DNA of 64,000 nucleotides from Naegleria gruberi (Eukaryota). The stretch is from the NCBI GenBank assembly GCA_000004985.1, contig GG738883.1; one strand, given 5' to 3'. The notes beneath the pieces are model-generated. The model had not been told where the DNA came from and made no database searches. It saw only the letters and a list, made by a program, of their open reading frames with translations. Every line of letters begins with the position of its first letter. Within the stretch, counting starts at the first letter, position 1. Positions 26,020 to 55,683 of this stretch are shown here, one piece after another. The translations under genes and the position numbers were made by a program.

Positions 26020-29000
26020 TCAAAAGTTTGGTAAAGTCAATCCCCAAACCACTGGAACCAACACACTAATCAAAATCCAATAAATGATCGTTAAGGGAAG
26101 ACCTACTTTAAAAAAGTCCAAAAATTTGTAATTTCCAACTCCCATCACCAACATATTCCCCGAAAATCCCAAAGGAAATGCAAAAACTGATTGAGATGCA
26201 TAAATTACACACATTACAAAACATCGAGCATTTAATCCATAGGATTGAGCTATGGACACAGCAATCGGAATGCAAATTGCAACAACAGCACTTCCAGTAA
26301 TAATGTGTGCAATGATGAGAGTGATGAAAGTTATGAATGCTGGAAGTAAAATGATTGGAACATTTGCCATTTTCAAAACTTGTGTGATTCCTTGTCCTAT
26401 TCCACTTTGAGTGATGGCAGTTCCAATGCCAATGGATGATCCAACCAATATTACTAGTCCCCAATCAACACTTTCTAATGCATCTGTTGGAGAAATCAAT
26501 CCAAACAAAATGATAACACAAAAAGTGACTAAACTACACTGAACCATTGGATAACCATATATGGCGCAACCAATCATGGCTGCAAAGAATAGGAAAATCC
26601 AATTTTCCCACCACCATAATCGAAATACCTTCTTAGTGAATGGAATTCTGAATTGGAATGGTCTTTGAATAAATTGATTGTCCGTAGGAGAAACTTCTGA
26701 AAATCTGGAAATCATGTAAAATTCTCGAGTGGAATTATGATGATTGGTGTAGAATCTGGGTTTTCCAATGACCAAAATGGTGTCTCCTGTGTTGACTTGG
26801 AAAGTTCTCAGATCGTTTTCAGCAGTTTCAGATTCCTTTTCCTCATAAAACATGTTTCGAATAGCTAGTACTGTAACTTGATATCTTAATTCGAAAATTT
26901 GATAAGTTTCACCAACACAAGGATTGGAATTGCCAATCACAACTTCAAAATATTCTAATTGACTTGTTTCTTCTACTACTGTCTCTTTGGATGTTTCTGC
27001 TTTGGAGCTTTCATTCTTCTTTGGATGATTTCTCTTCAGATTCGAATATAATTTTGTAATGATATCATTCTGATCACTTCCTCCACCAGATGAGATTGTA
27101 CTATTCTCATTTGAATCTTGACTTATTAAGGAAAGTTGTGAACCTCTCATTTGGGTAAACTCTTGAATTGATGGATTGATTGTTGACAATCGATATTCAT
27201 ATGGTTTAAGACTAACCTCCTTATACTCCTCAATCTCAAATACCATTGATTGGAGTTTCAAGATGGATTTGGGATTTCCTTTGAACATTAGAATATCATC
27301 CTTTTCAATGACAAGATCTTTTGGAACTGGTTTGATTCGTATGGTTTCTTCGGATGTGTCAGTTTCGATTTTTGCCATGTCTATTTCTATGGAAATAGTT
27401 TCTGCATTTGCAGGAGAGGTATTTTGAATAGATTCCATTTTCTTTTGAGTTTTGGTTTCCTCTACTTTCTTTTCACATTTTCTAATAACTTCCACAATTT
27501 CAATATTATCCAATTCTAAAACTTTCAGAATTTTTTCTTCATTTCTCCCCAACATGTTCATAAACAACATATAAGGTTTCGTATGATGCTTCTGAGATGA
27601 TAATTGATTCATTCTCACCACTGCAATAAACTCTTCCATTCTCTCTTTCGTCTTGTTTCTTAGTTTCTTTATCTTTTTAGCAAAATTCACATTAATTCTC
27701 TTCAACTTTTTGGATTCTCCCCTAATCTCATCTGGAACAATCCACAAACCATAGGTAATGAGATAGACAATCGTCACAACACACAAAATTCCTCCAACAT
27801 AAACAAACTCGTAAAATTCTAAAGCTCTATAACCATAACTGGTATACAATTCATTGGCCACAATATTAGGAGAATTTCCAATCGATGTCAAAAATCCACT
27901 TCCAGAAATAATGAAAGAAAGTGTCATTAAAAACTTTGAAGGTGAGACCTTATGTTGTCTAGCCCATTCCATTACAATTGGTAAACCTAAAACAACCACT
28001 GGTGTGTTGATTACAAAAGCACTTATCAAGGAAAACACCAAACAAATCCTCAATGTTGGAACTAGTAAGGATAAGTGTTGTAAAACCTTACTCTTTTCCA
28101 TGTTTTTGAATTTGATTGGAGAACCAAATAAGAGTTTTGAAAATTTCAAAACGAGTGAATTCTGAGTGACAGCTTTCACAATGGGAAATAGTAATGCAAT
28201 CACGAGTGTTCCACTACTTGCAAATCCACTGAGTGTCTGATCGAGAGTGAGAATTCCTGACAGATTGAAAATGACAATGGTAAAGAGAATAACGACATAG
28301 GGACGCCAAACTGTCAAGACCAAAAGTGTGAGCATGAGTAGGAGGAAAGCAACGACAACCCATAATTTCCATGAATTCCAAGCGAATGGTATTATTGGAG
28401 AAGAGGAAGAGCAAATGTTTGTAATTGGCTCTGATGTTTTGACATCTGAAATTAAAAGGGAAGAATTCAATAGTTTCAATGTTGAATAGGTATAATTGGA
28501 TTGTTTGATTTGGTTGAGCAATTGATTTGTATAATAATCCAAAGTGAATGTCTGGTTTAATACCACCAAATATGGCAATTCCATTCTAAGATGAGTAATA
28601 TTCAGCTGCAATGTGAACCACTGCATGTAATACTTATTCTTGTACAATTCTGAGATTTCAATGCTATCACTGACAAGAGAAACTTGATTTCCATTCAAAT
28701 TAAAAAACATTTTCTCATAATTCAAATCCAATCCATCATCGTTTCTCTTAGCTCTGTAATCGAAGAAATCCGAAGAAGGTAACAACAATTGTTTGGAGGT
28801 ATTACTATTCAAAATATTATTGTGAATTAATCGGAAATGTGAAAAAGTGAGTGTGGTGTTCAGGTTGGAAGAATTCATCACTTGTGAATCGGCTACTTTT
28901 GGGTAAATAATTTCCCATGCCAAAGTATTCTTTGTAGATGAAAACGATAGTGTTACAAAGCCAACTTTCTGTGTACTGTTTACATATTGATGCCTATCAT

Positions 29001-29259
29001 CACTCCACACCAGTTGATTTTTGGTAAATTGAGTTGAGAATTGGAACGCATTTAACTGTTCATTGATGAGCAGCGTTAAAATCAGCACAATGAGAAGTGA
29101 TGATGAACTCTCGAAAGTGAAAGAATGCGATCCTATCGATTTCATTCCTTTGCAAATCTTGTTGTTTTTTTCATCAGATAAAAACCCTATTAACATGGAC
29201 AATATTCGAAAATATACATTGTGTGGGTTTCCAATAAGAGGTGCAATCACTGATTCCAC
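26020..29259 (-). CDS. SLC13/DASS (ArsB-NhaD superfamily) anion permease with two internal TrkA-C-like domains and a large N-terminal ectodomain
   Basis: 1079-aa ORF. An N-terminal 330 aa with N-glycosylation-like sites precedes the first TM block. The central cytosolic region has two TrkA-C/RCK-C-like segments (IKPVPKDLVIEKDDILMFKGNPKS; FQVNTGDTILVIGKPRF). The C-terminal TM block has the ArsB/DASS pattern (GIGTAITQSGIGQGITQVLK...). Confidence 0.65.
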   Translation of the reverse strand: MESVIAPLIGNPHNVYFRILSMLIGFLSDEKNNKICKGMKSIGSHSFTFESSSSLLIVLILTLLINEQLNAFQFSTQFTKNQLVWSDDRHQYVNSTQKVGFVTLSFSSTKNTLAWEIIYPKVADSQVMNSSNLNTTLTFSHFRLIHNNILNSNTSKQLLLPSSDFFDYRAKRNDDGLDLNYEKMFFNLNGNQVSLVSDSIEISELYKNKYYMQWFTLQLNITHLRMELPYLVVLNQTFTLDYYTNQLLNQIKQSNYTYSTLKLLNSSLLISDVKTSEPITNICSSSSPIIPFAWNSWKLWVVVAFLLLMLTLLVLTVWRPYVVILFTIVIFNLSGILTLDQTLSGFASSGTLVIALLFPIVKAVTQNSLVLKFSKLLFGSPIKFKNMEKSKVLQHLSLLVPTLRICLVFSLISAFVINTPVVVLGLPIVMEWARQHKVSPSKFLMTLSFIISGSGFLTSIGNSPNIVANELYTSYGYRALEFYEFVYVGGILCVVTIVYLITYGLWIVPDEIRGESKKLKRINVNFAKKIKKLRNKTKERMEEFIAVVRMNQLSSQKHHTKPYMLFMNMLGRNEEKILKVLELDNIEIVEVIRKCEKKVEETKTQKKMESIQNTSPANAETISIEIDMAKIETDTSEETIRIKPVPKDLVIEKDDILMFKGNPKSILKLQSMVFEIEEYKEVSLKPYEYRLSTINPSIQEFTQMRGSQLSLISQDSNENSTISSGGGSDQNDIITKLYSNLKRNHPKKNESSKAETSKETVVEETSQLEYFEVVIGNSNPCVGETYQIFELRYQVTVLAIRNMFYEEKESETAENDLRTFQVNTGDTILVIGKPRFYTNHHNSTREFYMISRFSEVSPTDNQFIQRPFQFRIPFTKKVFRLWWWENWIFLFFAAMIGCAIYGYPMVQCSLVTFCVIILFGLISPTDALESVDWGLVILVGSSIGIGTAITQSGIGQGITQVLKMANVPIILLPAFITFITLIIAHIITGSAVVAICIPIAVSIAQSYGLNARCFVMCVIYASQSVFAFPLGFSGNMLVMGVGNYKFLDFFKVGLPLTIIYWILISVLVPVVWGLTLPNF

Positions 29260-30675: not shown

Positions 30676-32445
30676 TTAATTCAATTCTTGTTTTTTAAAT
30701 TTCATTCTCAGCTTGGGAATGTTAACACAACTGGCAATATCTAGAATGAAGGCAATGAGTAAAATGACACCAGATATGGTCATACTGACAATTAAACCAG
30801 TTTCATCGTATTCTTTCAACTTGGGAGAAGAATCGAATATTTCACAATTGGATCCAACCCACGAACCGAAACATGAACATTTTTCTGGTCCAACACATTT
30901 ACCTCTTCCCAAACAAACTTGACTTGAATTTGATAGAAAACCATTACAAGTTGTCAATTGGCAAACTATTCCAAAATATCCTTCACTGCAATTACAAGAA
31001 TTTAAAGTTTGACATTTGCCATTTCCACTGCAGACGAAACTTGAATTGAGTGATGAGATATTTTCACATGTTGGAATGCTGCAGTCAATTCCAAGGTATC
31101 CAGTTTCGCATTGACATTGATTGGGACCTATACAGTTACCATATGAACTGCAATTGTGAACTAGCCCACAATCAGGTGTTTCGCATAGTTGACCTTTCCA
31201 ACCAGAGTTACATTGACAAGTTTCGGTTGCAATACACTTTCCATTTCCACTACAAACTGATGAATTCGTGTATAGTGTACCATTACAGAAAATTGAAAGT
31301 GAGAGCTTTCGAATTCGATTATTACTCGAATCTGCAAAGTAAATTTCATCATTTTTCTTATCGTAAACTATTCCAGTTGGAAAGCTCAATAACGCCTGGG
31401 TTGCAATCTTGAAATCTCCATTAAAATTTAAAGTTCCCCAATTGACATTAATGGCGCCCATTCCAGCAATTGTTGAAATTGTTCCATTCGCTTGAATTTT
31501 TCTAATTCTTCCATTATACGAATCTGAAATAAACAAATCGCCACTTGGTGAAGTTGCCATAAAGTGAGGATTATTCAACTTTGCATTGATAGCTAGCCCT
31601 CCATCTCCACTCAATCCTCCATTCTTAATTACCATTCCAACTGGACCAATTCCACCTAAAGTTGTCAAAGTTCCATTTTCTAAACTAATTGACCGAATCT
31701 TGTTTGTGTAAATTTCAGCAATTCCTAAACTACCATCAACGAGACGAATAACACTACCAGGGCCACAAACTCTTGAATTCAATGCGATTGATCCATCTGC
31801 AGCAGAACCTTCAAGTCCATTACCATATATAGTAGTGATGGTGCCATTGGTTAGAATTTTTCTAATTCTATGATTCCACATATCACTAATGATGAGCTCT
31901 CCATTGGAAAGAGGAAGAATTCCAAGTGGCCAAGCTAACAAACTGTCAACTGCCAAAATATTGTCAGAATTAAAATTTAAACCTGGTGCTGTATTTGTTG
32001 CTCCCGTTCCAGCAATGGTCGAAACATTACCACTCTCTTTCCACATTTTCCTAATTCTATTATTGAAAGTATCAGAAATTATTAAATTCCCATCCGTTGG
32101 ATCAATTTTCACATCTTCAGGTTGACGAAACATGACTTGCATCGCATCCATCGAAAAATCTCCATTAAATCCTCTCACACCACTTCCTGCAATTGTTCTA
32201 ATCTTGTGACTTGTTAAATTCATCACACGAATTCTATCATTATAAGTGTCGGCAATGTACAACAATTCTCCATGAATTTCAAGACCGTATGGTTTGTTGA
32301 GAAAAACTTGGGTTGCTGGGATATTGTCTCCAATAATGTCAGAGCCACCACCTGCCACTGTTGTGATTGCGTATTGTTGTGGGAGGGCGAATTGGATTAG
32401 TGACATGCCAAATAATGACAAAATAAAAAGAATGGTAATTCTCAT
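30676..32445 (-). CDS. type I membrane protein with NHL-repeat beta-propeller and EGF-like repeats
   Basis: Signal peptide, then at least 6 NHL repeats (YIADTYNDRIRVMNL..., ISDTFNNRIRKMW..., ISDSYNGRIRKIQ..., FADSSNNRIRKLSL). Then four Cys-rich EGF-like modules (CSGNGKCIATETCQCNSGWKGQLCE...), a TM helix (VILLIAFILDIASCV) and a short basic tail. Confidence 0.75.
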   Translation of the reverse strand: MRITILFILSLFGMSLIQFALPQQYAITTVAGGGSDIIGDNIPATQVFLNKPYGLEIHGELLYIADTYNDRIRVMNLTSHKIRTIAGSGVRGFNGDFSMDAMQVMFRQPEDVKIDPTDGNLIISDTFNNRIRKMWKESGNVSTIAGTGATNTAPGLNFNSDNILAVDSLLAWPLGILPLSNGELIISDMWNHRIRKILTNGTITTIYGNGLEGSAADGSIALNSRVCGPGSVIRLVDGSLGIAEIYTNKIRSISLENGTLTTLGGIGPVGMVIKNGGLSGDGGLAINAKLNNPHFMATSPSGDLFISDSYNGRIRKIQANGTISTIAGMGAINVNWGTLNFNGDFKIATQALLSFPTGIVYDKKNDEIYFADSSNNRIRKLSLSIFCNGTLYTNSSVCSGNGKCIATETCQCNSGWKGQLCETPDCGLVHNCSSYGNCIGPNQCQCETGYLGIDCSIPTCENISSLNSSFVCSGNGKCQTLNSCNCSEGYFGIVCQLTTCNGFLSNSSQVCLGRGKCVGPEKCSCFGSWVGSNCEIFDSSPKLKEYDETGLIVSMTISGVILLIAFILDIASCVNIPKLRMKFKKQELN

Positions 32446-32521: not shown

Positions 32522-35500
32522 TTGAAATTAACTTCTCATTTAGAAATCAACGTGATTTCAATCAATTCCCAATGGCTTGGATCAACTTGTCAACAGTTAC
32601 TTGTCAAAAAAATGGAACGTGATGAGAATGCGATTTTGTTGCATGATGTTAAACCAAAAGATGATTCTTCCTCAGTTGAAATCACACCTGAAAACACCTC
32701 CTCCAACCAACCATTACCAAATGATGAAAAGAAACCTAGACGAAACTTGGGAGTTTCTTTCAGTGGTGGTGGAATTCGCTCAGCAAGTTTTATGGTTGGC
32801 GTGATTGAAGCTTTAGTTTTTAGCGAAGGTGAATTAATGACAAATGTAAAAGAATTCTCAAGTGTGAGTGGAGGTGGCTATGCTTCGTCTAGTTTCTACT
32901 CTTATTTGATCGCTCAATTAACTCAACCAGAGCAACCTAACAATCCATTCGAAACAGCATTCAAGCAAATGAAAGAAACCTTTGAAAGAAATTCCAATTA
33001 TTTAGTTTCTGGAATAGCTGCCTTGCGAACTGCTTGTTTCTTTCTTGTTGGTGCTTTACATAATTTTTTATTGTGGTTTTGTTTGTGCATCTTGCTTGGA
33101 AATTTCTTATTTGCAGGTGTTGTTTATAATGTCAATGACAATGCCACTGGTCAGATGACAAGTTATTTGAGCCACGTTCCTTTAATTAGTAATGGGACTA
33201 TTTCTGTGAGTGAAAAGACAGATAAGGCACAGTATTTCATATTATCATTCTTGCAATTTACGAGTATTGCTAATGATATAGTTCAGGGAAAGTATACTTC
33301 TTTTGGATGGTCAGTTTTTCCAAGAGAGTTAGTCATTACTGTATTTTCCATTCTAATGGTATTGGTTTTGGTTCTTATTACTTGGGTTGTTAAAGTGAGA
33401 TATGTCAATCATTACAATAATGGTTTCTTTGATTGTTTGATGGATGGTTTTAACTCTTTCTTGCAATGTTTTAATTTCATTTTGAAATATGAATCAGTTA
33501 AAAGGATATGGGGAGGTTTTAAAATTGTGTTCATATATTTTCCAGCTGCAATTATAGGAGTAGGCGGATTATTGATTTTACCTTTGTTAGCATTGAGTTT
33601 CTTGCTTTCCATTTTTGTAGAATGTTTAAAGTTTACAATGTTTGTAGAAGGATTGATTTTAGTATCTTGGGGAGAATCCTCCTTCTTAGCTTCGCACCAC
33701 ATCTTTAATTCTTTGTATTTGGTGGGATGGATAGTTATGGCTATTATCTTTGGTTTCATCTTTGCTACAGGAAAGAATATTTTCAAATTGGGCGAAACTG
33801 TTGCAATGGGTTTATCTGGCTTCTTTCTAATCGTTTGTACTCCAATTATGTTGTTGTGGATTGCAAGTCACTTTTGTCTGTGGCAAATATTTGGTGATTA
33901 CGGAGAGTTTACAATGATACCAACAATCAACAATTCAGAAGCTGAGCTAGTATGTTTGAAAACTTTTGCATCGATTTGGGTTGCCATTGAGCTATTCATG
34001 TCCGAGTATTTGAATTCTGCATTCAGAGAGCTCTACAATTCTGGTTTGAAAAACTTTCTTCATTCGAATATTTGTGTAAGCAAAGCAGGAGAAAGACAAG
34101 ACCTACCAATTTTCACATTTAATTGTTGTGTTAATAATTTGGCTGAGAAAGAAGGTAGCTGTGGTCACTATAGCTTCTCTTCTACAGGAAAATGCCGTTC
34201 CATTACTCATAATTTACCCAAGCTTGACACTTCTAATCTTTCCCTGTCAACTGTTGTTTCCATTTCAGGAGCTGCTGTTTCCTTAATGCTTGGTGAGGCT
34301 CTTAATATTCCTCTTGTTTCTCAATTCGTTGCATTTGTTCTATATATTTTAGGTATAAATATTGGAGAGTGGGTTGATTTGGGAAATTACAAAACGAAAA
34401 CAATTGACAAATTTTTCAAATGGTTTTTGTTAGTTTGTGTCTTTTTGACTAATTTGAACGTTTTTGAAGGAATTTATAGTAGTGGTTTAATTTACGGTTC
34501 ATGGTTGTATAGAATAATTGTTATTGGTGTAATTATGTATTCTTTTGGATTGCAAATTATTATAGGGCTAGTTTTGAGATTGGTGAATATTGGACGAAAT
34601 CCTGAATACTCTTTATATCAAATATTCTTCAACATTTTTAGCCTGCATTACATCCCACTCTTTAGAGCATTATTGATGATAGTGGGATATCCAGATAATG
34701 TCACATCAAAGACTTATTTCCTCTCAGATGGAGGACATTACGAAAATCTAGGATTACTGAACTTGCTCTACAATATGAGAAGTGAAATATTCGCATTCGA
34801 TGCAACTGAAGATAGTAAATTGTCTCTTTCAGAATTGAGTAGTTGCTTGGAGAAGGCCATTAGATTCAATATCATTAAGGAGGATTCTATTAAATGTTAT
34901 CCGAGCAAGAGTCGTGCAAATAATAATGATTACAAGTATTCAGTGGATGATCTTATGAGGATTGACTTATGGGAAACTAGAGCTCATCAAGATGAGGGTG
35001 CCCTTATCAAATTATCCAGAAGTAACTTTCTGTACATTGAATTTGAATACACTGAAACACATGTGAAAAATTCGAATCCACAACCAAAACAACAACCAAA
35101 ACAAGAAAAACAAACATCCACCAATACTACACAACAAGCACAACAGCCAACACCTTCCTCTGCTTCAAATACTAATAATACCAATTGCACATCATCAATA
35201 GAGAATGCTTCTCCAACCACAGATATTACTTCCAAATCATCACCAAAAGAACAAACACAACCTGAATCAACCAATAATATATCCGAATCCACAGCAGCCA
35301 ATGACCCACCACAACAAGAAACTGAATCAAGAAAAGGCTGTCTTTGGTATGGAAAAGCAACCTTAACAGGAGAAGAAGATGACCGAATTAAATTCTATCA
35401 ATCCAACAATAATGTCTTTCCTCATCACAGCACCCTATTCCAATTATTTTCCAAAGAGGACTTTTCAGCTTATAGATTATTAGGAAAGCATGTTGCCTCA

Positions 35501-35536
35501 TGTATTACCAATGATTATTTAGCTAATCAAAATTAG
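32522..35536 (+). CDS. cPLA2/PLB-type phospholipase (PLA2_B fold) interrupted by a large polytopic membrane region; Q/T/N-rich C-terminal tail
   Basis: Oxyanion/Arg motif VSFSGGGIRSASFMVGVIEAL (compare cPLA2 SGGGFRAM). Nucleophile motif SSVSGGGYASS (compare GLSGS / fungal PLB LSGGSW). Catalytic Asp motif FLSDGGHYENLGLLNL near residue 750. Between the Ser and Asp motifs lie about 600 aa with at least 10 hydrophobic helices. The true start may be the internal Met MERDENAILL. Confidence 0.65.
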   Translation: MKLTSHLEINVISINSQWLGSTCQQLLVKKMERDENAILLHDVKPKDDSSSVEITPENTSSNQPLPNDEKKPRRNLGVSFSGGGIRSASFMVGVIEALVFSEGELMTNVKEFSSVSGGGYASSSFYSYLIAQLTQPEQPNNPFETAFKQMKETFERNSNYLVSGIAALRTACFFLVGALHNFLLWFCLCILLGNFLFAGVVYNVNDNATGQMTSYLSHVPLISNGTISVSEKTDKAQYFILSFLQFTSIANDIVQGKYTSFGWSVFPRELVITVFSILMVLVLVLITWVVKVRYVNHYNNGFFDCLMDGFNSFLQCFNFILKYESVKRIWGGFKIVFIYFPAAIIGVGGLLILPLLALSFLLSIFVECLKFTMFVEGLILVSWGESSFLASHHIFNSLYLVGWIVMAIIFGFIFATGKNIFKLGETVAMGLSGFFLIVCTPIMLLWIASHFCLWQIFGDYGEFTMIPTINNSEAELVCLKTFASIWVAIELFMSEYLNSAFRELYNSGLKNFLHSNICVSKAGERQDLPIFTFNCCVNNLAEKEGSCGHYSFSSTGKCRSITHNLPKLDTSNLSLSTVVSISGAAVSLMLGEALNIPLVSQFVAFVLYILGINIGEWVDLGNYKTKTIDKFFKWFLLVCVFLTNLNVFEGIYSSGLIYGSWLYRIIVIGVIMYSFGLQIIIGLVLRLVNIGRNPEYSLYQIFFNIFSLHYIPLFRALLMIVGYPDNVTSKTYFLSDGGHYENLGLLNLLYNMRSEIFAFDATEDSKLSLSELSSCLEKAIRFNIIKEDSIKCYPSKSRANNNDYKYSVDDLMRIDLWETRAHQDEGALIKLSRSNFLYIEFEYTETHVKNSNPQPKQQPKQEKQTSTNTTQQAQQPTPSSASNTNNTNCTSSIENASPTTDITSKSSPKEQTQPESTNNISESTAANDPPQQETESRKGCLWYGKATLTGEEDDRIKFYQSNNNVFPHHSTLFQLFSKEDFSAYRLLGKHVASCITNDYLANQN

Positions 35537-36043: not shown

Positions 36044-38263
36044 TTACTTACCATTTTGAGAGATTTCATTCTTGCCTTCTTGTGGAAGTAAATCGTGCAG
36101 TTTCTTCTTACAATCGAATGGCAATAATTTTGAGGAGAAGAGTGTCTCTATCACATGTTTAGGAATTAATGTTGAAAGTTTGGAATCTAGATTCTTGAGG
36201 ATATAGCTCGATACAATTCCACATACAAATTTCTCATGTTCCTTCCTTTCGAACTTTTCCATTAAATAGTAAATATAAATTGGGTTCAATATTTCTAATA
36301 TTTCAGAAATTGTTAAATCATCCACTAAATAAATACACAATTCGTGTAATAATTCCAATTCAAAAAAGGTCTTTTTTCTTAAAAAGGCAACCTTTCCCTC
36401 TTTTAAAAAATTGAAATATAAATCAAATATTTCAACAACGCCCTCATTCTTAATAGATGGAATAATTTCATTCGAAACTCCACTCAAATCAACTATCATC
36501 AGCCCATTCTGATTTCTTTCCACACTATTAATCCAATCTGAGCTTAACAAAGTTATGAAATAGTTTGATCTTTTCAGTAACTTTCCCTCACATTCAATTG
36601 AATCACTTTTAGATAATTTAATGAGGATTGTATCCTCAATTTGAATGTTTTCATGAGATTCACCTTCCTTAATATTATACGAATGTATCAATTTCATTAA
36701 ATTATCAAATGGAAATGGCATTAATTTGACATTTGGCTTTTCGATAATTGGTGATTTGACATGCTTTAACTTTTCTTGAAATAGTTCCAAGAAACTAGCT
36801 ATGGATTTTCTTTTGGAAAGGTTCATATTCTTTCCCATCCATTTCAATCCTTCAGAATAATTTAGTTCGGTTCCTCTTCCTTGCCAATACATTGATGAAA
36901 TTTTCAATTGAGCATTTAAGTTTCCTTGCTTGGCTGCTTTCAAATAGTATTCGAAAGCTTTAGAATCACTCTGTTCGATTCCTTTTCCTTTCAGATACAT
37001 TAGTCCAAGCTCAAAATGTGCTGTTGAATTTCCTTCCTCAGCTGCTTTTGAATACCATTTAAAAGCTTGTGAATAATCCTTATTGCACCCCTCTCCAGAG
37101 AAATACATATTCCCTAAGAGGACCATTGCCTCAGTCTCATTTTGGTTTGCAGATTTCAAAACCAATTCGAAAGCTTTCGAATAATCTTTTTCTACACCTT
37201 TTCCAAGAACAATCATTGATCCAGCAGCAAGTTGAGACTTTGCATCCCCTTGCTCAGCTGCTCTCAAATACCATTTCAAAGCTTTCGAATAGTCACCATT
37301 CGAATGATAAATCTTTCCACATACATTTTGAGAGGTCACGTCACCTAGCTCTGCAGCTTTCAGATACCATTCCATAGCTTTAGAAACATCTTTTTCAACT
37401 CCATGTCCAAAATAATATATACTTCCAATATCATATTGAATTGACAAAAGTTTTGGAACTCTTCCATGAGATTCAGCTTTTAAAAGCCATTCTAAAGTTT
37501 TGGAATAATCTTGTGGTACAGATTGTCCATAAAAATGCATGTAACCAATTTGAGCTTGTGATTCAAAACAACCCTTCTCTGCAGCTTTCGTATACCATTC
37601 AAAAGCTTTCGTATAATCTGGTTCAACCCCTATTATTCCTTCATAATAAATATGCCCAATAGTACGTTGAGCTGCACAATGCCCTTTCTCAGCTGCTTGC
37701 AAAAAGAATTCCATAGCTTTCGAATAGTCTTGTTCTATTCCAACCCCTTTCAAATACATTGACCCAATCTGGAATAGACCTGCCTGTGCAGTTTTCATAT
37801 ACCATTCGAAAGCTTTCGAATAATCAATCTCTGTATTAGCTCGATTATGATAAAACTCTCCAATCTTTTTCATTGCCAACAAGTGATTATCCCTAATCGA
37901 TGCAATACAAAAATCCAAATTACTAAATTCTTCCGCCAATAAGTAAACATAAAATTTCCAAATATTTTCTTCACACTTTTCATTTTCTGCATTTTTTAAA
38001 ATTTCTTCCAAATATTTTGCATAATCAATAAATTCACAATCTTCATTTTCTATTGTTGATCTATCTTCTTGATAATTATTGTTACGAATTAATTTAATTG
38101 TTTTTAAATTTTCCAAAACTTGATGAAATTTAGAATTGTTCCATCCGATTAAAAGTGAAATGTCATCGGTGGGTTCTTCTTCTTTTTGGTGGTGATTAAT
38201 GGTCTTCTTCTTCTTCTTGTTTGATTTCTGGCCAGATTTTTGATCATGAGAACGTTTTTTCAT
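36044..38263 (-). CDS. Sel1-repeat (TPR-like) protein
   Basis: 739-aa ORF. Basic KKKKK N-terminus, then about 10 Sel1 repeats (DYSKAFEWYMKTAQAG...GIEQDYSKAMEFFLQAAEKGH...), then a roughly 250-aa C-terminal region. Confidence 0.75.
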   Translation of the reverse strand: MKKRSHDQKSGQKSNKKKKKTINHHQKEEEPTDDISLLIGWNNSKFHQVLENLKTIKLIRNNNYQEDRSTIENEDCEFIDYAKYLEEILKNAENEKCEENIWKFYVYLLAEEFSNLDFCIASIRDNHLLAMKKIGEFYHNRANTEIDYSKAFEWYMKTAQAGLFQIGSMYLKGVGIEQDYSKAMEFFLQAAEKGHCAAQRTIGHIYYEGIIGVEPDYTKAFEWYTKAAEKGCFESQAQIGYMHFYGQSVPQDYSKTLEWLLKAESHGRVPKLLSIQYDIGSIYYFGHGVEKDVSKAMEWYLKAAELGDVTSQNVCGKIYHSNGDYSKALKWYLRAAEQGDAKSQLAAGSMIVLGKGVEKDYSKAFELVLKSANQNETEAMVLLGNMYFSGEGCNKDYSQAFKWYSKAAEEGNSTAHFELGLMYLKGKGIEQSDSKAFEYYLKAAKQGNLNAQLKISSMYWQGRGTELNYSEGLKWMGKNMNLSKRKSIASFLELFQEKLKHVKSPIIEKPNVKLMPFPFDNLMKLIHSYNIKEGESHENIQIEDTILIKLSKSDSIECEGKLLKRSNYFITLLSSDWINSVERNQNGLMIVDLSGVSNEIIPSIKNEGVVEIFDLYFNFLKEGKVAFLRKKTFFELELLHELCIYLVDDLTISEILEILNPIYIYYLMEKFERKEHEKFVCGIVSSYILKNLDSKLSTLIPKHVIETLFSSKLLPFDCKKKLHDLLPQEGKNEISQNGK

Positions 38264-42634: not shown

Positions 42635-45028
42635 TTATTGATCCAAAACTTGAATGAGGACAGAGTTTGGTTTTTTCACAATTTCACCAATTTTCCACAA
42701 ATTCAAATTCTTTTCCTTGAACGAATTGACCAGCTTTTCTTCCTCATCAGGAGAAATGGTAAACAGCAAGCCACCACTTGTTTGAGCATCTGCCAAAATT
42801 AATTGTTCTTCCTTTGATAGAGTTGAGGCGAATTCAACGAATTGTTGAACATTTTCCAAATTAGTTTTGGTTCCTCCAGGAATAACAATTCTCATTAAGG
42901 ATAGACAAGAAGAATCCAAAAGAGGAATTTGCTTTGCATTCAATTGAGCTACCAAATCCTTATTTTCCTCACAGATTTCTCTACTTCCTTTCATAATTTC
43001 CTTCAAATGTCCTAGTAATCCAAAACCTGTCACATCAGTGCAAGAAGAGACAGATTTCATTTCTCTCAACACATACGAAGTATCTCTATTCAAAGTCTTC
43101 ATAGAATTGATTGCAGATTGAGCTGTTTCAGATTCATATGGAACATTACCCAATTTCATTGCAGATGTAATGACACCTGTTCCAATTCTCTTGGTGAGGA
43201 ATAATAAATCTCCTTCTTCACATCCAACATTTCTGAAAATCTTGTCAGGATGAATAATGCCATTTACACTCATGCCGAATTTAGGTTCCTCATCATCGAT
43301 GGAATGACCACCAACAATGGCAACTCCAGCTTCATTGGCTTTATCGATGGAACCTCTCAAGATTTCTTGGAGAATTTCGATTGGGAGAGTTCTGGATGGG
43401 AAGGCAACAACACTGAGAGCTGTTTGTGGTTTACCACCCATTGCATAGACATCACTTAAGGCATTAGCACAAGCAATAGCTCCAAAATCGTAAGGGTTGT
43501 CCACAATTGGAGCGAAAAAGTCAATGGTGCTTACAATAGCAACGTGATCATTGATTTTGTAAACTGCTGCATCGTCACAGGTTGAATTTCCAACCAGAAC
43601 TGAATTATTTTCTGGTTGTTTTGGCAATTTCTGTAAAATACTGTCTAGTAATCGAGAATTAATCTTACATCCACATCCCAATCCAGAAGCTAATTGAGTC
43701 AACTTGACATTATCTGCATTAACGTTCAATGAAACTTTCTTTGAGAAACAAACTCCGCTTGAAGATATTGAACTAGAACAAGATGAAGCAACTCCTGTAG
43801 CTCCTCCACCACATGGACCACAGGATGATGAGCCACTTCCGCCTCCAGAAGTTGCCATTGATGGAGCAGCTCCTTTTGATTTTAGCCCAAAGTGAATCGA
43901 ACGGTTTCCAACGACATTAAAGTGATTTCCCAACCAAGTATCTGAAAGAACTGAGGCAGTATTTCCACAAACTAGAACTGGTTTGTGGGCTTCAAATTTG
44001 TGAGTACCATCCAATTGGTAACTTTGTGGATAGCCCTTAATACTTCCCTTATAATAAGCAACTTGTCCATAATCTTCACATAATGGTTCAAAATCGAATA
44101 ACTTGAATAATCTGTATGTGGAAGTGAATGACGAGAGCTCTGAAAATAAATCTTGCATATCCTCCTCACCTTTTGGTGGTACCATCGATATGGAAATCAT
44201 TGAGGAACGACTCAATTCTCTTGGATCTTCAAATCCAGACTTTTTCACAAATCTAATAAAGTCATTAATGTACATGGCATGTGAAAACAAATTGATGAGA
44301 CTCTTTTGTGAAGGCGCAATCAAGGATCTGTGGACAGAGTTTTGCAAGACGGAAATTTGCAAATTGTCCAATCTTCTATCGGTATAAATATCCTGATAGT
44401 AAAATTCACCTCCCTTTTTAAGTAATCCAAATGAAAGCTCAAACATTTTTCTCTTCTCTCTCAATTGGAATCCAGGGAAATTACCAATCATTACATCAAA
44501 GGATTCTTTCTTCTCCAATTCCACTTTCAGCTCATGCTGTTTTCCTAAATAAGTAAAGTCAATTGGACTAAATGACAAGTCCTTCAACAATTCATCCATT
44601 ACCTTAATCAACTCTTCCTCGCTCTCCAAACCTCCCATTCTATACAACTTTTCTCTATTTTCACTCAGTACCAACAATGAAACTCTTCCATTTCTTCCAA
44701 CCATTTTCGAAGCCACCAAAACATCTCTCATTGCACTTGATAATAACAACTCATCATCACCATTCGCACACAACACACCAACATTAAGGTGATGATGATT
44801 ATCGAGAGTGGATGATCCCAATCCCAGTGGAATATTCATTCCGATCATTCCCTGTGAAGAAAATGCTGAGGATTGATCTAAAAGTTTGCTGAGGAATTTT
44901 CTTAAAGTTTCCGAATGTAGGGTTGATGATGAGGCAATTTGGGAAAGTTGATTGAGTAGTTGGACATGATCTCTGTGATGAGAGTTACTGGAAATGAAAT
45001 TAAGATTTAAGAATTCTATCATTTTCAT
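42635..45028 (-). CDS. bifunctional protein: N-terminal arsenite-methyltransferase (AS3MT/ArsM)-like domain fused to C-terminal selenophosphate synthetase (SelD/SPS, Cys form)
   Basis: The C-terminal 400 aa are unmistakably SPS (active site GLGCGCKIN; DDAAV; GGHSIDD; the AIR-synthase-like fold). The first Cys codon is TGT, not TGA-Sec. The N-terminal 380 aa align to the AS3MT core (SFDVMIGNFPGFQLREKRKMFELSFGLLKKGGEFYYQDIYTD versus FDVVISNCVINLV...VLKHGGELYFSDVYTS) and the AS3MT C-terminal region (YRLFKLFDFEPLCEDYGQVAYYKGS...). The SAM motif I appears degenerate. A Gly/Ser/Cys-rich linker joins the two domains. Confidence 0.85.
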   Translation of the reverse strand: MKMIEFLNLNFISSNSHHRDHVQLLNQLSQIASSSTLHSETLRKFLSKLLDQSSAFSSQGMIGMNIPLGLGSSTLDNHHHLNVGVLCANGDDELLLSSAMRDVLVASKMVGRNGRVSLLVLSENREKLYRMGGLESEEELIKVMDELLKDLSFSPIDFTYLGKQHELKVELEKKESFDVMIGNFPGFQLREKRKMFELSFGLLKKGGEFYYQDIYTDRRLDNLQISVLQNSVHRSLIAPSQKSLINLFSHAMYINDFIRFVKKSGFEDPRELSRSSMISISMVPPKGEEDMQDLFSELSSFTSTYRLFKLFDFEPLCEDYGQVAYYKGSIKGYPQSYQLDGTHKFEAHKPVLVCGNTASVLSDTWLGNHFNVVGNRSIHFGLKSKGAAPSMATSGGGSGSSSCGPCGGGATGVASSCSSSISSSGVCFSKKVSLNVNADNVKLTQLASGLGCGCKINSRLLDSILQKLPKQPENNSVLVGNSTCDDAAVYKINDHVAIVSTIDFFAPIVDNPYDFGAIACANALSDVYAMGGKPQTALSVVAFPSRTLPIEILQEILRGSIDKANEAGVAIVGGHSIDDEEPKFGMSVNGIIHPDKIFRNVGCEEGDLLFLTKRIGTGVITSAMKLGNVPYESETAQSAINSMKTLNRDTSYVLREMKSVSSCTDVTGFGLLGHLKEIMKGSREICEENKDLVAQLNAKQIPLLDSSCLSLMRIVIPGGTKTNLENVQQFVEFASTLSKEEQLILADAQTSGGLLFTISPDEEEKLVNSFKEKNLNLWKIGEIVKKPNSVLIQVLDQ

Positions 45029-55612: not shown

Positions 55613-55683
55613 TCGGGTGTGGTATAGTGGTAGCATTCCAGACTGTCACTCTGGCGACCCGGGTTCAATTCCAGGCACTCGAG
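55613..55683 (+). tRNA. tRNA-Asp (anticodon GUC)
   Basis: Cloverleaf built by hand. Acceptor TCGGGTG/CACTCGA (one G-U). D-arm GTATAGTGGTAG. Anticodon stem CCAGA/TCTGG with loop CTGTCAC. T-arm CCGGG-TTCAATT-CCAGG with one G-A mismatch. Discriminator G. T5 run 6 nt downstream (55689-55693) as a Pol III terminator. Confidence 0.65.

Follow-up and report, generated by a model that had tools for sequence, protein, structure and literature searches.

Within a stretch of 64,000 nucleotides from Naegleria gruberi (contig GG738883.1 of assembly GCA_000004985.1; hereafter the window), NAEGRDRAFT_80567 appears, with a probability that we put at roughly 0.75, to be a single-exon gene for an integral-membrane lipid acyl hydrolase of the patatin/cytosolic phospholipase A2 (cPLA2) superfamily, of the phospholipase A/lysophospholipase type, that probably came from bacteria. 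The complete coding sequence lies at positions 32612..35536 of the + strand (974 amino acids and a stop codon), as delimited by the open reading frame (ORF) and by exact identity of its product with the annotated N. gruberi protein XP_002674514.1 (D2VMP7), which carries the name “PNPLA domain-containing protein” in UniProt and UniRef. The uninterrupted frame extends over positions 32522-35536 and comprises 1004 codons when counted from an upstream in-frame TTG, though translation almost certainly starts at the first ATG at 32612 and not at the TTG at 32522. Residue numbers given here refer to the 974-residue product, and the ORF numbering of an earlier first-pass annotation, made from the sequence alone, is higher by 30.

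The remaining two + frames across the gene are interrupted by 66 and 90 stops, and 974 stop-free codons would be expected by chance with P ~4e-32 at the composition of the gene. The contig is a 371-kb N. gruberi scaffold on which both flanking ORFs correspond exactly to N. gruberi proteins, NAEGRDRAFT_80566 and NAEGRDRAFT_70215. GC content (0.346) and GC content at third codon positions (GC3, 0.29) are similar to those of the flanking genes, and codon counts correlate with those of the two adjacent genes at 0.88. Composition by codon position within the insertions of the gene is only weakly informative. Frame statistics and neighbour-like composition together indicate that NAEGRDRAFT_80567 is a true coding region adapted to its host and does not stem from contamination.

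A bacterial family with the same layout

Searches with the Naegleria protein retrieve 2393 homologues at E ≤ 1e-3; most of the 119 best of these are about 800 amino acids long and labelled “patatin-like phospholipase family protein”. The Naegleria protein and these bacterial homologues of about 800 residues are single ORFs that align colinearly from end to end with 23-27% identity, and they share the same order of conserved blocks, i.e., GGGIR, VSGGGY, a hydrophobic region, LYRDRL, PYHLIN, ISGAA, DGGH.ENLG, D..D, and FPHxST..Q.F....F..YR.LG. Against a profile of the C-terminal halves of bacterial members only (C-half profile), the C-terminal half of the Naegleria protein scores 115 bits, distributed over the ISGAA, DGG, and FPHxST blocks, with shuffled sequences reaching at most 3.8. 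This match places the Asp region and the N-terminal motifs in one protein family.

At E ≤ 1e-30 the family profile matches 11,418 representatives of clusters formed at 50% identity, the best of these matches being full-length in one stretch, and the number of confirmed genome loci is at least 597. These loci are distributed over Alpha- and Gammaproteobacteria, Acidobacteriota, Verrucomicrobiota, Planctomycetota, Gemmatimonadota, Desulfobacterales, Nitrospinia, Ignavibacteriales, and Acidimicrobiia. The first-pass annotation had regarded a membrane domain within the catalytic core as an arrangement that it did not recognise; the layout is not unusual among known sequences, being a hallmark of this bacterial family. 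In members such as those of Labrys monachus, Bradyrhizobium macuxiense (AS156_29235), and Shimia sp. R9_3, the motifs and the insertion point are the same as in Naegleria. The distance from the nucleophilic serine to the aspartate has a median of 534 residues in 101 bacterial homologues (range 429-693), and 93 of these 101 display 5-6 hydrophobic peaks between the serine and LYRDRL. Bacterial members are characterised by six regularly spaced long helices. The Naegleria protein differs from them in having a transmembrane (TM) block of about 340 residues with some eight helices (about six in bacteria), a second hydrophobic block, an insertion at residues 761-905, and host-like composition. No curated Pfam or NCBIfam model was found for the bacterial TM-inserted family, the NCBIfam scan of four bacterial members being empty, and no solved structure of any family member was found.

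The 119 best matches other than the query score 80-100 bits; none of them bears the source tag of the eukaryote database, and all ten for which the source is named by organism are bacterial. Since the distribution is overwhelmingly bacterial, no closer relative is seen, and the gene consists of a single exon, NAEGRDRAFT_80567 most likely represents an old acquisition from bacteria, judging from these sequence comparisons, that has since been given Naegleria composition and inserts.

Catalytic motifs and fold

The first-pass annotation had recognised three catalytic signatures, which in its ORF numbering are GGGIR (82-86), SVSGG (114-118, with Ser116), and DGG (736-738). All three are indeed present and are invariant in 104 homologues. 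The N-terminal catalytic segment (residues 45-130; 32744..33001, + strand, as are all features of this gene) consists of strand 1, the oxyanion loop, a helix, strand 2, the nucleophile elbow, and two helices; it is defined by a predicted local distance difference test score (pLDDT) of 79-97 in an AlphaFold2 (AF2) model, by a match to PF01734 over residues 49-128, and by invariant columns. The GGGIR oxyanion/phosphate-binding motif (residues 52-56; 32765..32779), invariant in the 104 sequences, is placed by the model between strand 46-51 and helix 54-69, and Arg56 is, by motif, the counterpart of Arg200 of cPLA2-alpha. The nucleophile elbow SSVSGGGY (residues 83-90; 32858..32881), with the predicted nucleophile Ser86 encoded at 32867-32869, is located at the turn between strand 79-84 and helix 87-104, and S83, V85, S86, G87-89, and Y90 are invariant. 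In 104 of 104 aligned members the elbow conforms to [ST]-V-S-G-G-G-Y, the first glycine of the canonical motif always being Ser or Thr, and this form of the elbow might constitute a diagnostic signature of the family.

The middle segment of the catalytic core (residues 466-590; 34007..34381) comprises a juxtamembrane helix, three strands, and the ISGAA motif (residues 551-555), and is supported by a pLDDT of 70-90 and by the C-half profile. Its juxtamembrane helix FRELYNSGL matches LYRDRL of the bacterial proteins, and the part around ISGAA (residues ~539-589) forms domain 1 of the 115-bit profile match. Domain 2 of that match corresponds to the Asp-bearing segment (residues 696-760; 34697..34891; pLDDT 76-93), in which DGGH (34727-34738) follows strand 701-705 of the model. 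D706, G707, G708, and H709 are invariant in the 104 homologues, and Asp706 (34727-34729) is the predicted dyad partner of Ser86. The C-terminal catalytic segment (residues 906-974; 35327..35533; pLDDT 83-97) provides the strongest block of the profile match (61 bits) and contains the family signature FPHHSTLFQLFSKEDFSAYRLLG at 35417-35485, with P937, T941, Q944, Y954, R955, and G958 invariant in the 104 homologues. Between these last two segments lies the Naegleria-specific insertion of residues 761-905 (34892..35326), which appears as a gap in every bacterial homologue aligned. This insertion is largely predicted to be disordered and includes a low-complexity stretch rich in Q, N, T, S, and P; pLDDT falls below 50 at residues 765-804 and 815-903, with a predicted strand (807-813) between, and its freedom from stops has a chance probability of ~3e-5.

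The AF2 model, obtained from the 104-sequence alignment, has a mean pLDDT of 62.5 and a predicted template modelling score of 0.67. Confidence is high in residues 45-130, 480-560, 700-760, and 905-974 (80-97 in the core) whereas the TM helices and the inserts specific to Naegleria are modelled with low confidence. In the model, all three catalytic motifs are situated at strand-to-helix turns, as a fold of the cPLA2/patatin type would lead one to expect. A three-layer α/β/α patatin fold was found, and the closest structural likeness is to the catalytic domain of cPLA2. The structural comparison aligns more than 300 residues, of which the N-terminal piece can account for only about 85, so that the C-terminal segments must complete the fold. 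Foldseek searches against the PDB align no more than the first ~95 residues, as the local alignment is interrupted at the insertion.

At the level of sequence, Pfam and NCBIfam scans of the Naegleria protein yield nothing beyond a sub-threshold Patatin match, and no C2 domain is found with Pfam. Three of four bacterial relatives scanned singly pass PF01734 (34-40 bits) and the fourth scores 19.3, coverage being limited to the N-terminal ~50-100 residues. Weak matches to PF01735 occur in 5 of 11 family members, and in the four members scanned singly, three of these five and one other, the match covers only profile positions 1-59 of 491. All in all, the two Pfam models recognise roughly the first 60 residues of bacterial members. 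The C-half profile of the family detects no lipase, cPLA2 included, among PDB sequences at E ≤ 10, and the full-length family profile produces weak N-terminal matches to VipD, ExoU, and cPLA2-delta together with noise from G-protein-coupled receptors that is due to TM composition. Judged by the model, the catalytic domain is cPLA2-like at the level of the fold and not by a sequence match to PF01735. The proposal of a PLA2_B-type lipase in the first-pass annotation is thus retained as regards the fold but unsupported as regards the sequence family, for the PF01735 search is empty and no lipase of known structure is detected with the C-half profile.

The cPLA2 enzymes (alpha, PDB 1CJY; delta, 5IXC) are soluble and are recruited to the membrane by a C2 domain, whereas the Naegleria protein is devoid of C2; the interval between Ser and Asp forms a soluble cap or lid in cPLA2 and is occupied by hydrophobic helices in Naegleria. 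Patatin/PNPLA lipases (1OXW; PlpD, 5FQU; CapV, 8ZR9; CapE, 9IOM; iPLA2-beta, 6AUN; ExoU; VipD) possess a G-x-S-x-G elbow, whereas that of Naegleria is of the [ST]-V-S-G-G type. Known PNPLA lipases are soluble, peripheral, or anchored through a separate terminal domain, for example a β-barrel in PlpD or, in PNPLA6, one TM helix at the N-terminus, whereas in the Naegleria protein the helices are situated inside the catalytic domain. We know of no patatin/PNPLA lipase that has TM helices inserted into its catalytic domain.

Hydrophobic blocks within the catalytic domain

According to hydropathy and the helices of the AF2 model, the 620 residues from Ser86 to Asp706 accommodate nine to eleven hydrophobic helices. 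The first-pass annotation had described a membrane insertion of roughly 600 residues at this place; its extent and hydrophobic character are borne out, but it is not one continuous insertion, since the interval consists of block 1 (residues 131-465), 125 residues of conserved catalytic core (residues 466-590), and block 2 (residues 591-695). The integral-membrane phospholipase envisaged in that annotation is the natural reading of the sequence.

Block 1 (33002..34006), as delimited by hydropathy, AF2 helices, and alignment position, has about 7-8 strongly hydrophobic helices and two amphipathic ones. Its insertion point, directly after the post-nucleophile helices, is the site of about six TM helices in the bacterial homologues. 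By alignment, block 1 shares its position with the bacterial TM bundle, and common descent of the two is unproven. No solved structure was found that resembles the bacterial bundle. A search of a large database with the TM block alone (33002-34021) gave no match at E ≤ 0.01 and missed even the parent protein, of which the query is an exact part, for which reason the result is uninformative; it looks like an artefact of filtering or candidate selection for hydrophobic queries.

Block 2 (34382..34696), which directly precedes the Asp strand, contains at least two hydrophobic helices and is specific to Naegleria, being missing from the bacterial homologues. The span from ISGAA to DGG amounts to 155 residues in Naegleria versus 70-100 in bacteria, and none of 94 bacterial sequences shows a hydrophobic peak between these two motifs.

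For the bacterial members the distribution of charges is informative about orientation. In 69 members with six peaks, loops 2 and 4, which belong to the catalytic side, have a density of lysine plus arginine of 0.19 per residue, compared with 0.08 for loops 1, 3, and 5. From this asymmetry and the positive-inside rule, the catalytic domain of the bacterial members is probably cytoplasmic. Such a location accords with the lack of a signal peptide.

Proposed mode of action

In the mechanism that we propose, the catalytic domain would be assembled from three stretches, residues 45-130, 466-590, and 696-974. Blocks 1 and 2 would be embedded in the membrane, and the catalytic pieces could all come to lie on one face, presumably the cytosolic one, only if each block were re-entrant or made an even number of crossings. 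On this face Ser86 and Asp706 would form the catalytic dyad, with Gly52-54 and Arg56 supplying the oxyanion hole and a phosphate contact. The TM insertions would hold the enzyme permanently at the surface of the bilayer, and a glycerolipid substrate would probably be taken up laterally from the cytosolic leaflet. The sequence analysis shows one gene, its family relationship, the conservation of the motifs, the assignment of the fold, and hydrophobicity; topology, catalytic activity, substrate, and the role of the TM bundle are inferred from these.

A more far-reaching proposal, which we put forward tentatively and consider rather less probable than not, is that the family and its Naegleria offshoot constitute a distinct, undescribed class of phospholipases, in which a dedicated helical bundle, its fold unlike that of any solved structure, within a cPLA2-like domain might serve as a lateral substrate gate or as a sensor of membrane state, so that these would be intramembrane-coupled lipases in the true sense, and to which Naegleria would have added a second hairpin independently before the Asp strand.

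Weighing the integral-membrane hydrolase against other explanations

Several observations weigh against an integral-membrane hydrolase of bacterial origin. PF01734 (Patatin) reaches only 24.3 bits with the Naegleria protein, below its gathering cut-off of 27.7 and over residues 49-128 only, and PF01735 (PLA2_B) gives no match even at E ≤ 10. The elbow reads S-V-S-G-G in Naegleria, i.e., the canonical G-x-S-x-G with its first glycine replaced. Block 1 scores -3.8 against a profile of the bacterial TM block, a value that 509 of 2000 shuffled sequences reach, so that no sequence similarity is detectable, and the TM regions of the Naegleria protein are modelled at a pLDDT of 45-70 only. No donor clade emerges, as scores show no gradient between Alpha- and Gammaproteobacteria, and the transfer from bacteria is our inference. 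Finally, no experimental work on expression, activity, substrate, or topology of any family member was found in the literature.

Among other functions, a role as a latent, suicide-type or toxin-like effector that disrupts membranes, with the TM bundle sensing a membrane or infection signal and activating the lipase in response, and the Naegleria copy co-opted for defence or stress, survives best, and even this seems unlikely to us. It would agree with the family member of Shimia sp. R9_3, whose gene lies amid genes for TIR, ThsB_TIR, WD40, Nmad2, and MazG_C proteins, and with the part that CapV and CapE, structurally related lipases of the patatin type, play as defence effectors in cyclic oligonucleotide-based antiphage signalling systems. 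However, PADLOC detects no model match among five family members, and the bacterial genes stand alone: no neighbouring gene family occurs in more than 18 of 80 diverse loci, those neighbours that do recur (in up to 18 loci) appear to reflect synteny among close relatives, and no conserved operon partner was found in the 80 loci and five singly inspected contexts. The four contexts inspected other than that of Shimia are ordinary metabolic neighbourhoods. A single contig of the viral collection carries a relative, which also speaks against an effector role.

Regarding these two particular cases, the Shimia sp. R9_3 member (JAGHRP010000002.1, 6001-8493) has an N-terminal extension of ~190 residues, and its flanks, with matches to ThsB_TIR, TIR_2, LD_cluster2, WD40 β-propellers, Nmad2, and MazG_C, look like a defence or conflict island. 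The relative on the viral contig (IMGVR_UViG_3300038300_000076, 3001-3798) is distant, corresponds to the C-terminal half, and shows 31% identity over 232 residues; it was detected with the family profile. As it lies at the end of this contig of 62 kb, it may represent cargo from the host or mark a prophage boundary. Close relatives of the Naegleria protein were not found in viral and metagenome contigs.

It is improbable that the hydrophobic blocks fail to span the bilayer and serve instead as an anchor of the monotopic, re-entrant, or lipid-droplet type, or as a large hydrophobic cap that covers the active site. The low model confidence in the Naegleria TM regions would be in line with such an arrangement, as would the moderate hydrophobicity of helices 205-224, 272-292, and 596-614 (best 19-residue Kyte-Doolittle scores of ~0.9-1.0) and the location of block 2 just before the Asp strand, which would correspond to the end of the cap in cPLA2-alpha. 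Yet at least seven helices of the Naegleria protein, 27-53 residues in length, attain best 19-residue scores of 1.7-2.9, and the six-helix pattern of the bacterial members shows a clear positive-inside asymmetry.

Coupling of the lipase to lipid scrambling or transport, with the TM block feeding the hydrolase, had been suggested in the first-pass annotation and is very improbable, as nothing supports such a role and the bacterial TM bundle resembles no solved structure. Least credible of all is an artefact, be it a mis-joined model of a lipase fragment and a membrane protein, an unspliced intron, or bacterial contamination: the insertions at 591-695 and 761-905 are missing from all homologues, but the conserved blocks from GGGIR to FPHxST lie in one frame, each Naegleria-specific insertion is stop-free with chance probabilities of ~3e-5 to 7e-5, GC and GC3 are like those of the flanking genes on the 371-kb N. 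gruberi scaffold, and the two-gene alternative with a hidden intron, which had been raised as a caveat at the outset, fails because bacterial genes encode the same block order in one ORF.

Neighbouring genes in the window

The neighbours of NAEGRDRAFT_80567 are encoded on the opposite strand and are unrelated to the lipase, being a teneurin-like NHL/EGF membrane protein and a Sel1-repeat protein. The former, NAEGRDRAFT_80566 (30676-32445, - strand), has NHL repeats, several EGF-like domains, a signal-like N-terminus, and a C-terminal TM helix, a layout that amounts to an animal-like adhesion architecture inside an amoeboflagellate. The latter (36044-38263, - strand) has 739 residues and scores 260 bits against PF08238. 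Farther away, an ORF of 1079 amino acids at 26020-29259 (- strand) encodes a CitMHS-type transporter with a weak TrkA_C match in the middle of the protein. Another ORF at 42635-45028 (- strand, 797 amino acids) combines an N-terminal methyltransferase-like region (Methyltransf_31, sub-threshold) with AIRS and AIRS_C, a layout that recalls the fusion of a methyltransferase with a protein of the selenophosphate-synthetase or PurM type. The sole tRNA gene found within the window, for tRNA-Asp (GTC), is situated at 55613-55683 on the + strand.

Significance for the family and for Naegleria

Databases already list the protein, under its generic PNPLA label, and the family is an abundant one. Our literature searches turned up neither an account of a patatin/cPLA2 catalytic domain with TM helices inserted into it nor any mention of NAEGRDRAFT_80567, and in a 2026 review of PNPLA-domain proteins the word “transmembrane” is absent. 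Patatin and cPLA2 are textbook examples of interfacial enzymes, soluble and recruited to membranes. If the protein is an integral-membrane hydrolase as we propose, the enzymes of this family would, in contrast, reside in the membrane at all times. Given how common it is in soil and rhizobial bacteria, the family may represent an overlooked route of phospholipid turnover or remodelling.

With its eukaryotic context, host-like composition, and an extra membrane insertion of its own, the Naegleria copy is a likely example of a bacterial membrane enzyme that was acquired and remodelled by a eukaryote. Membrane-associated, Ca-independent phospholipase A2 activities have been reported in Naegleria, as the reference list of PMC10513453 indicates, and the product of NAEGRDRAFT_80567 is a candidate for such activities.

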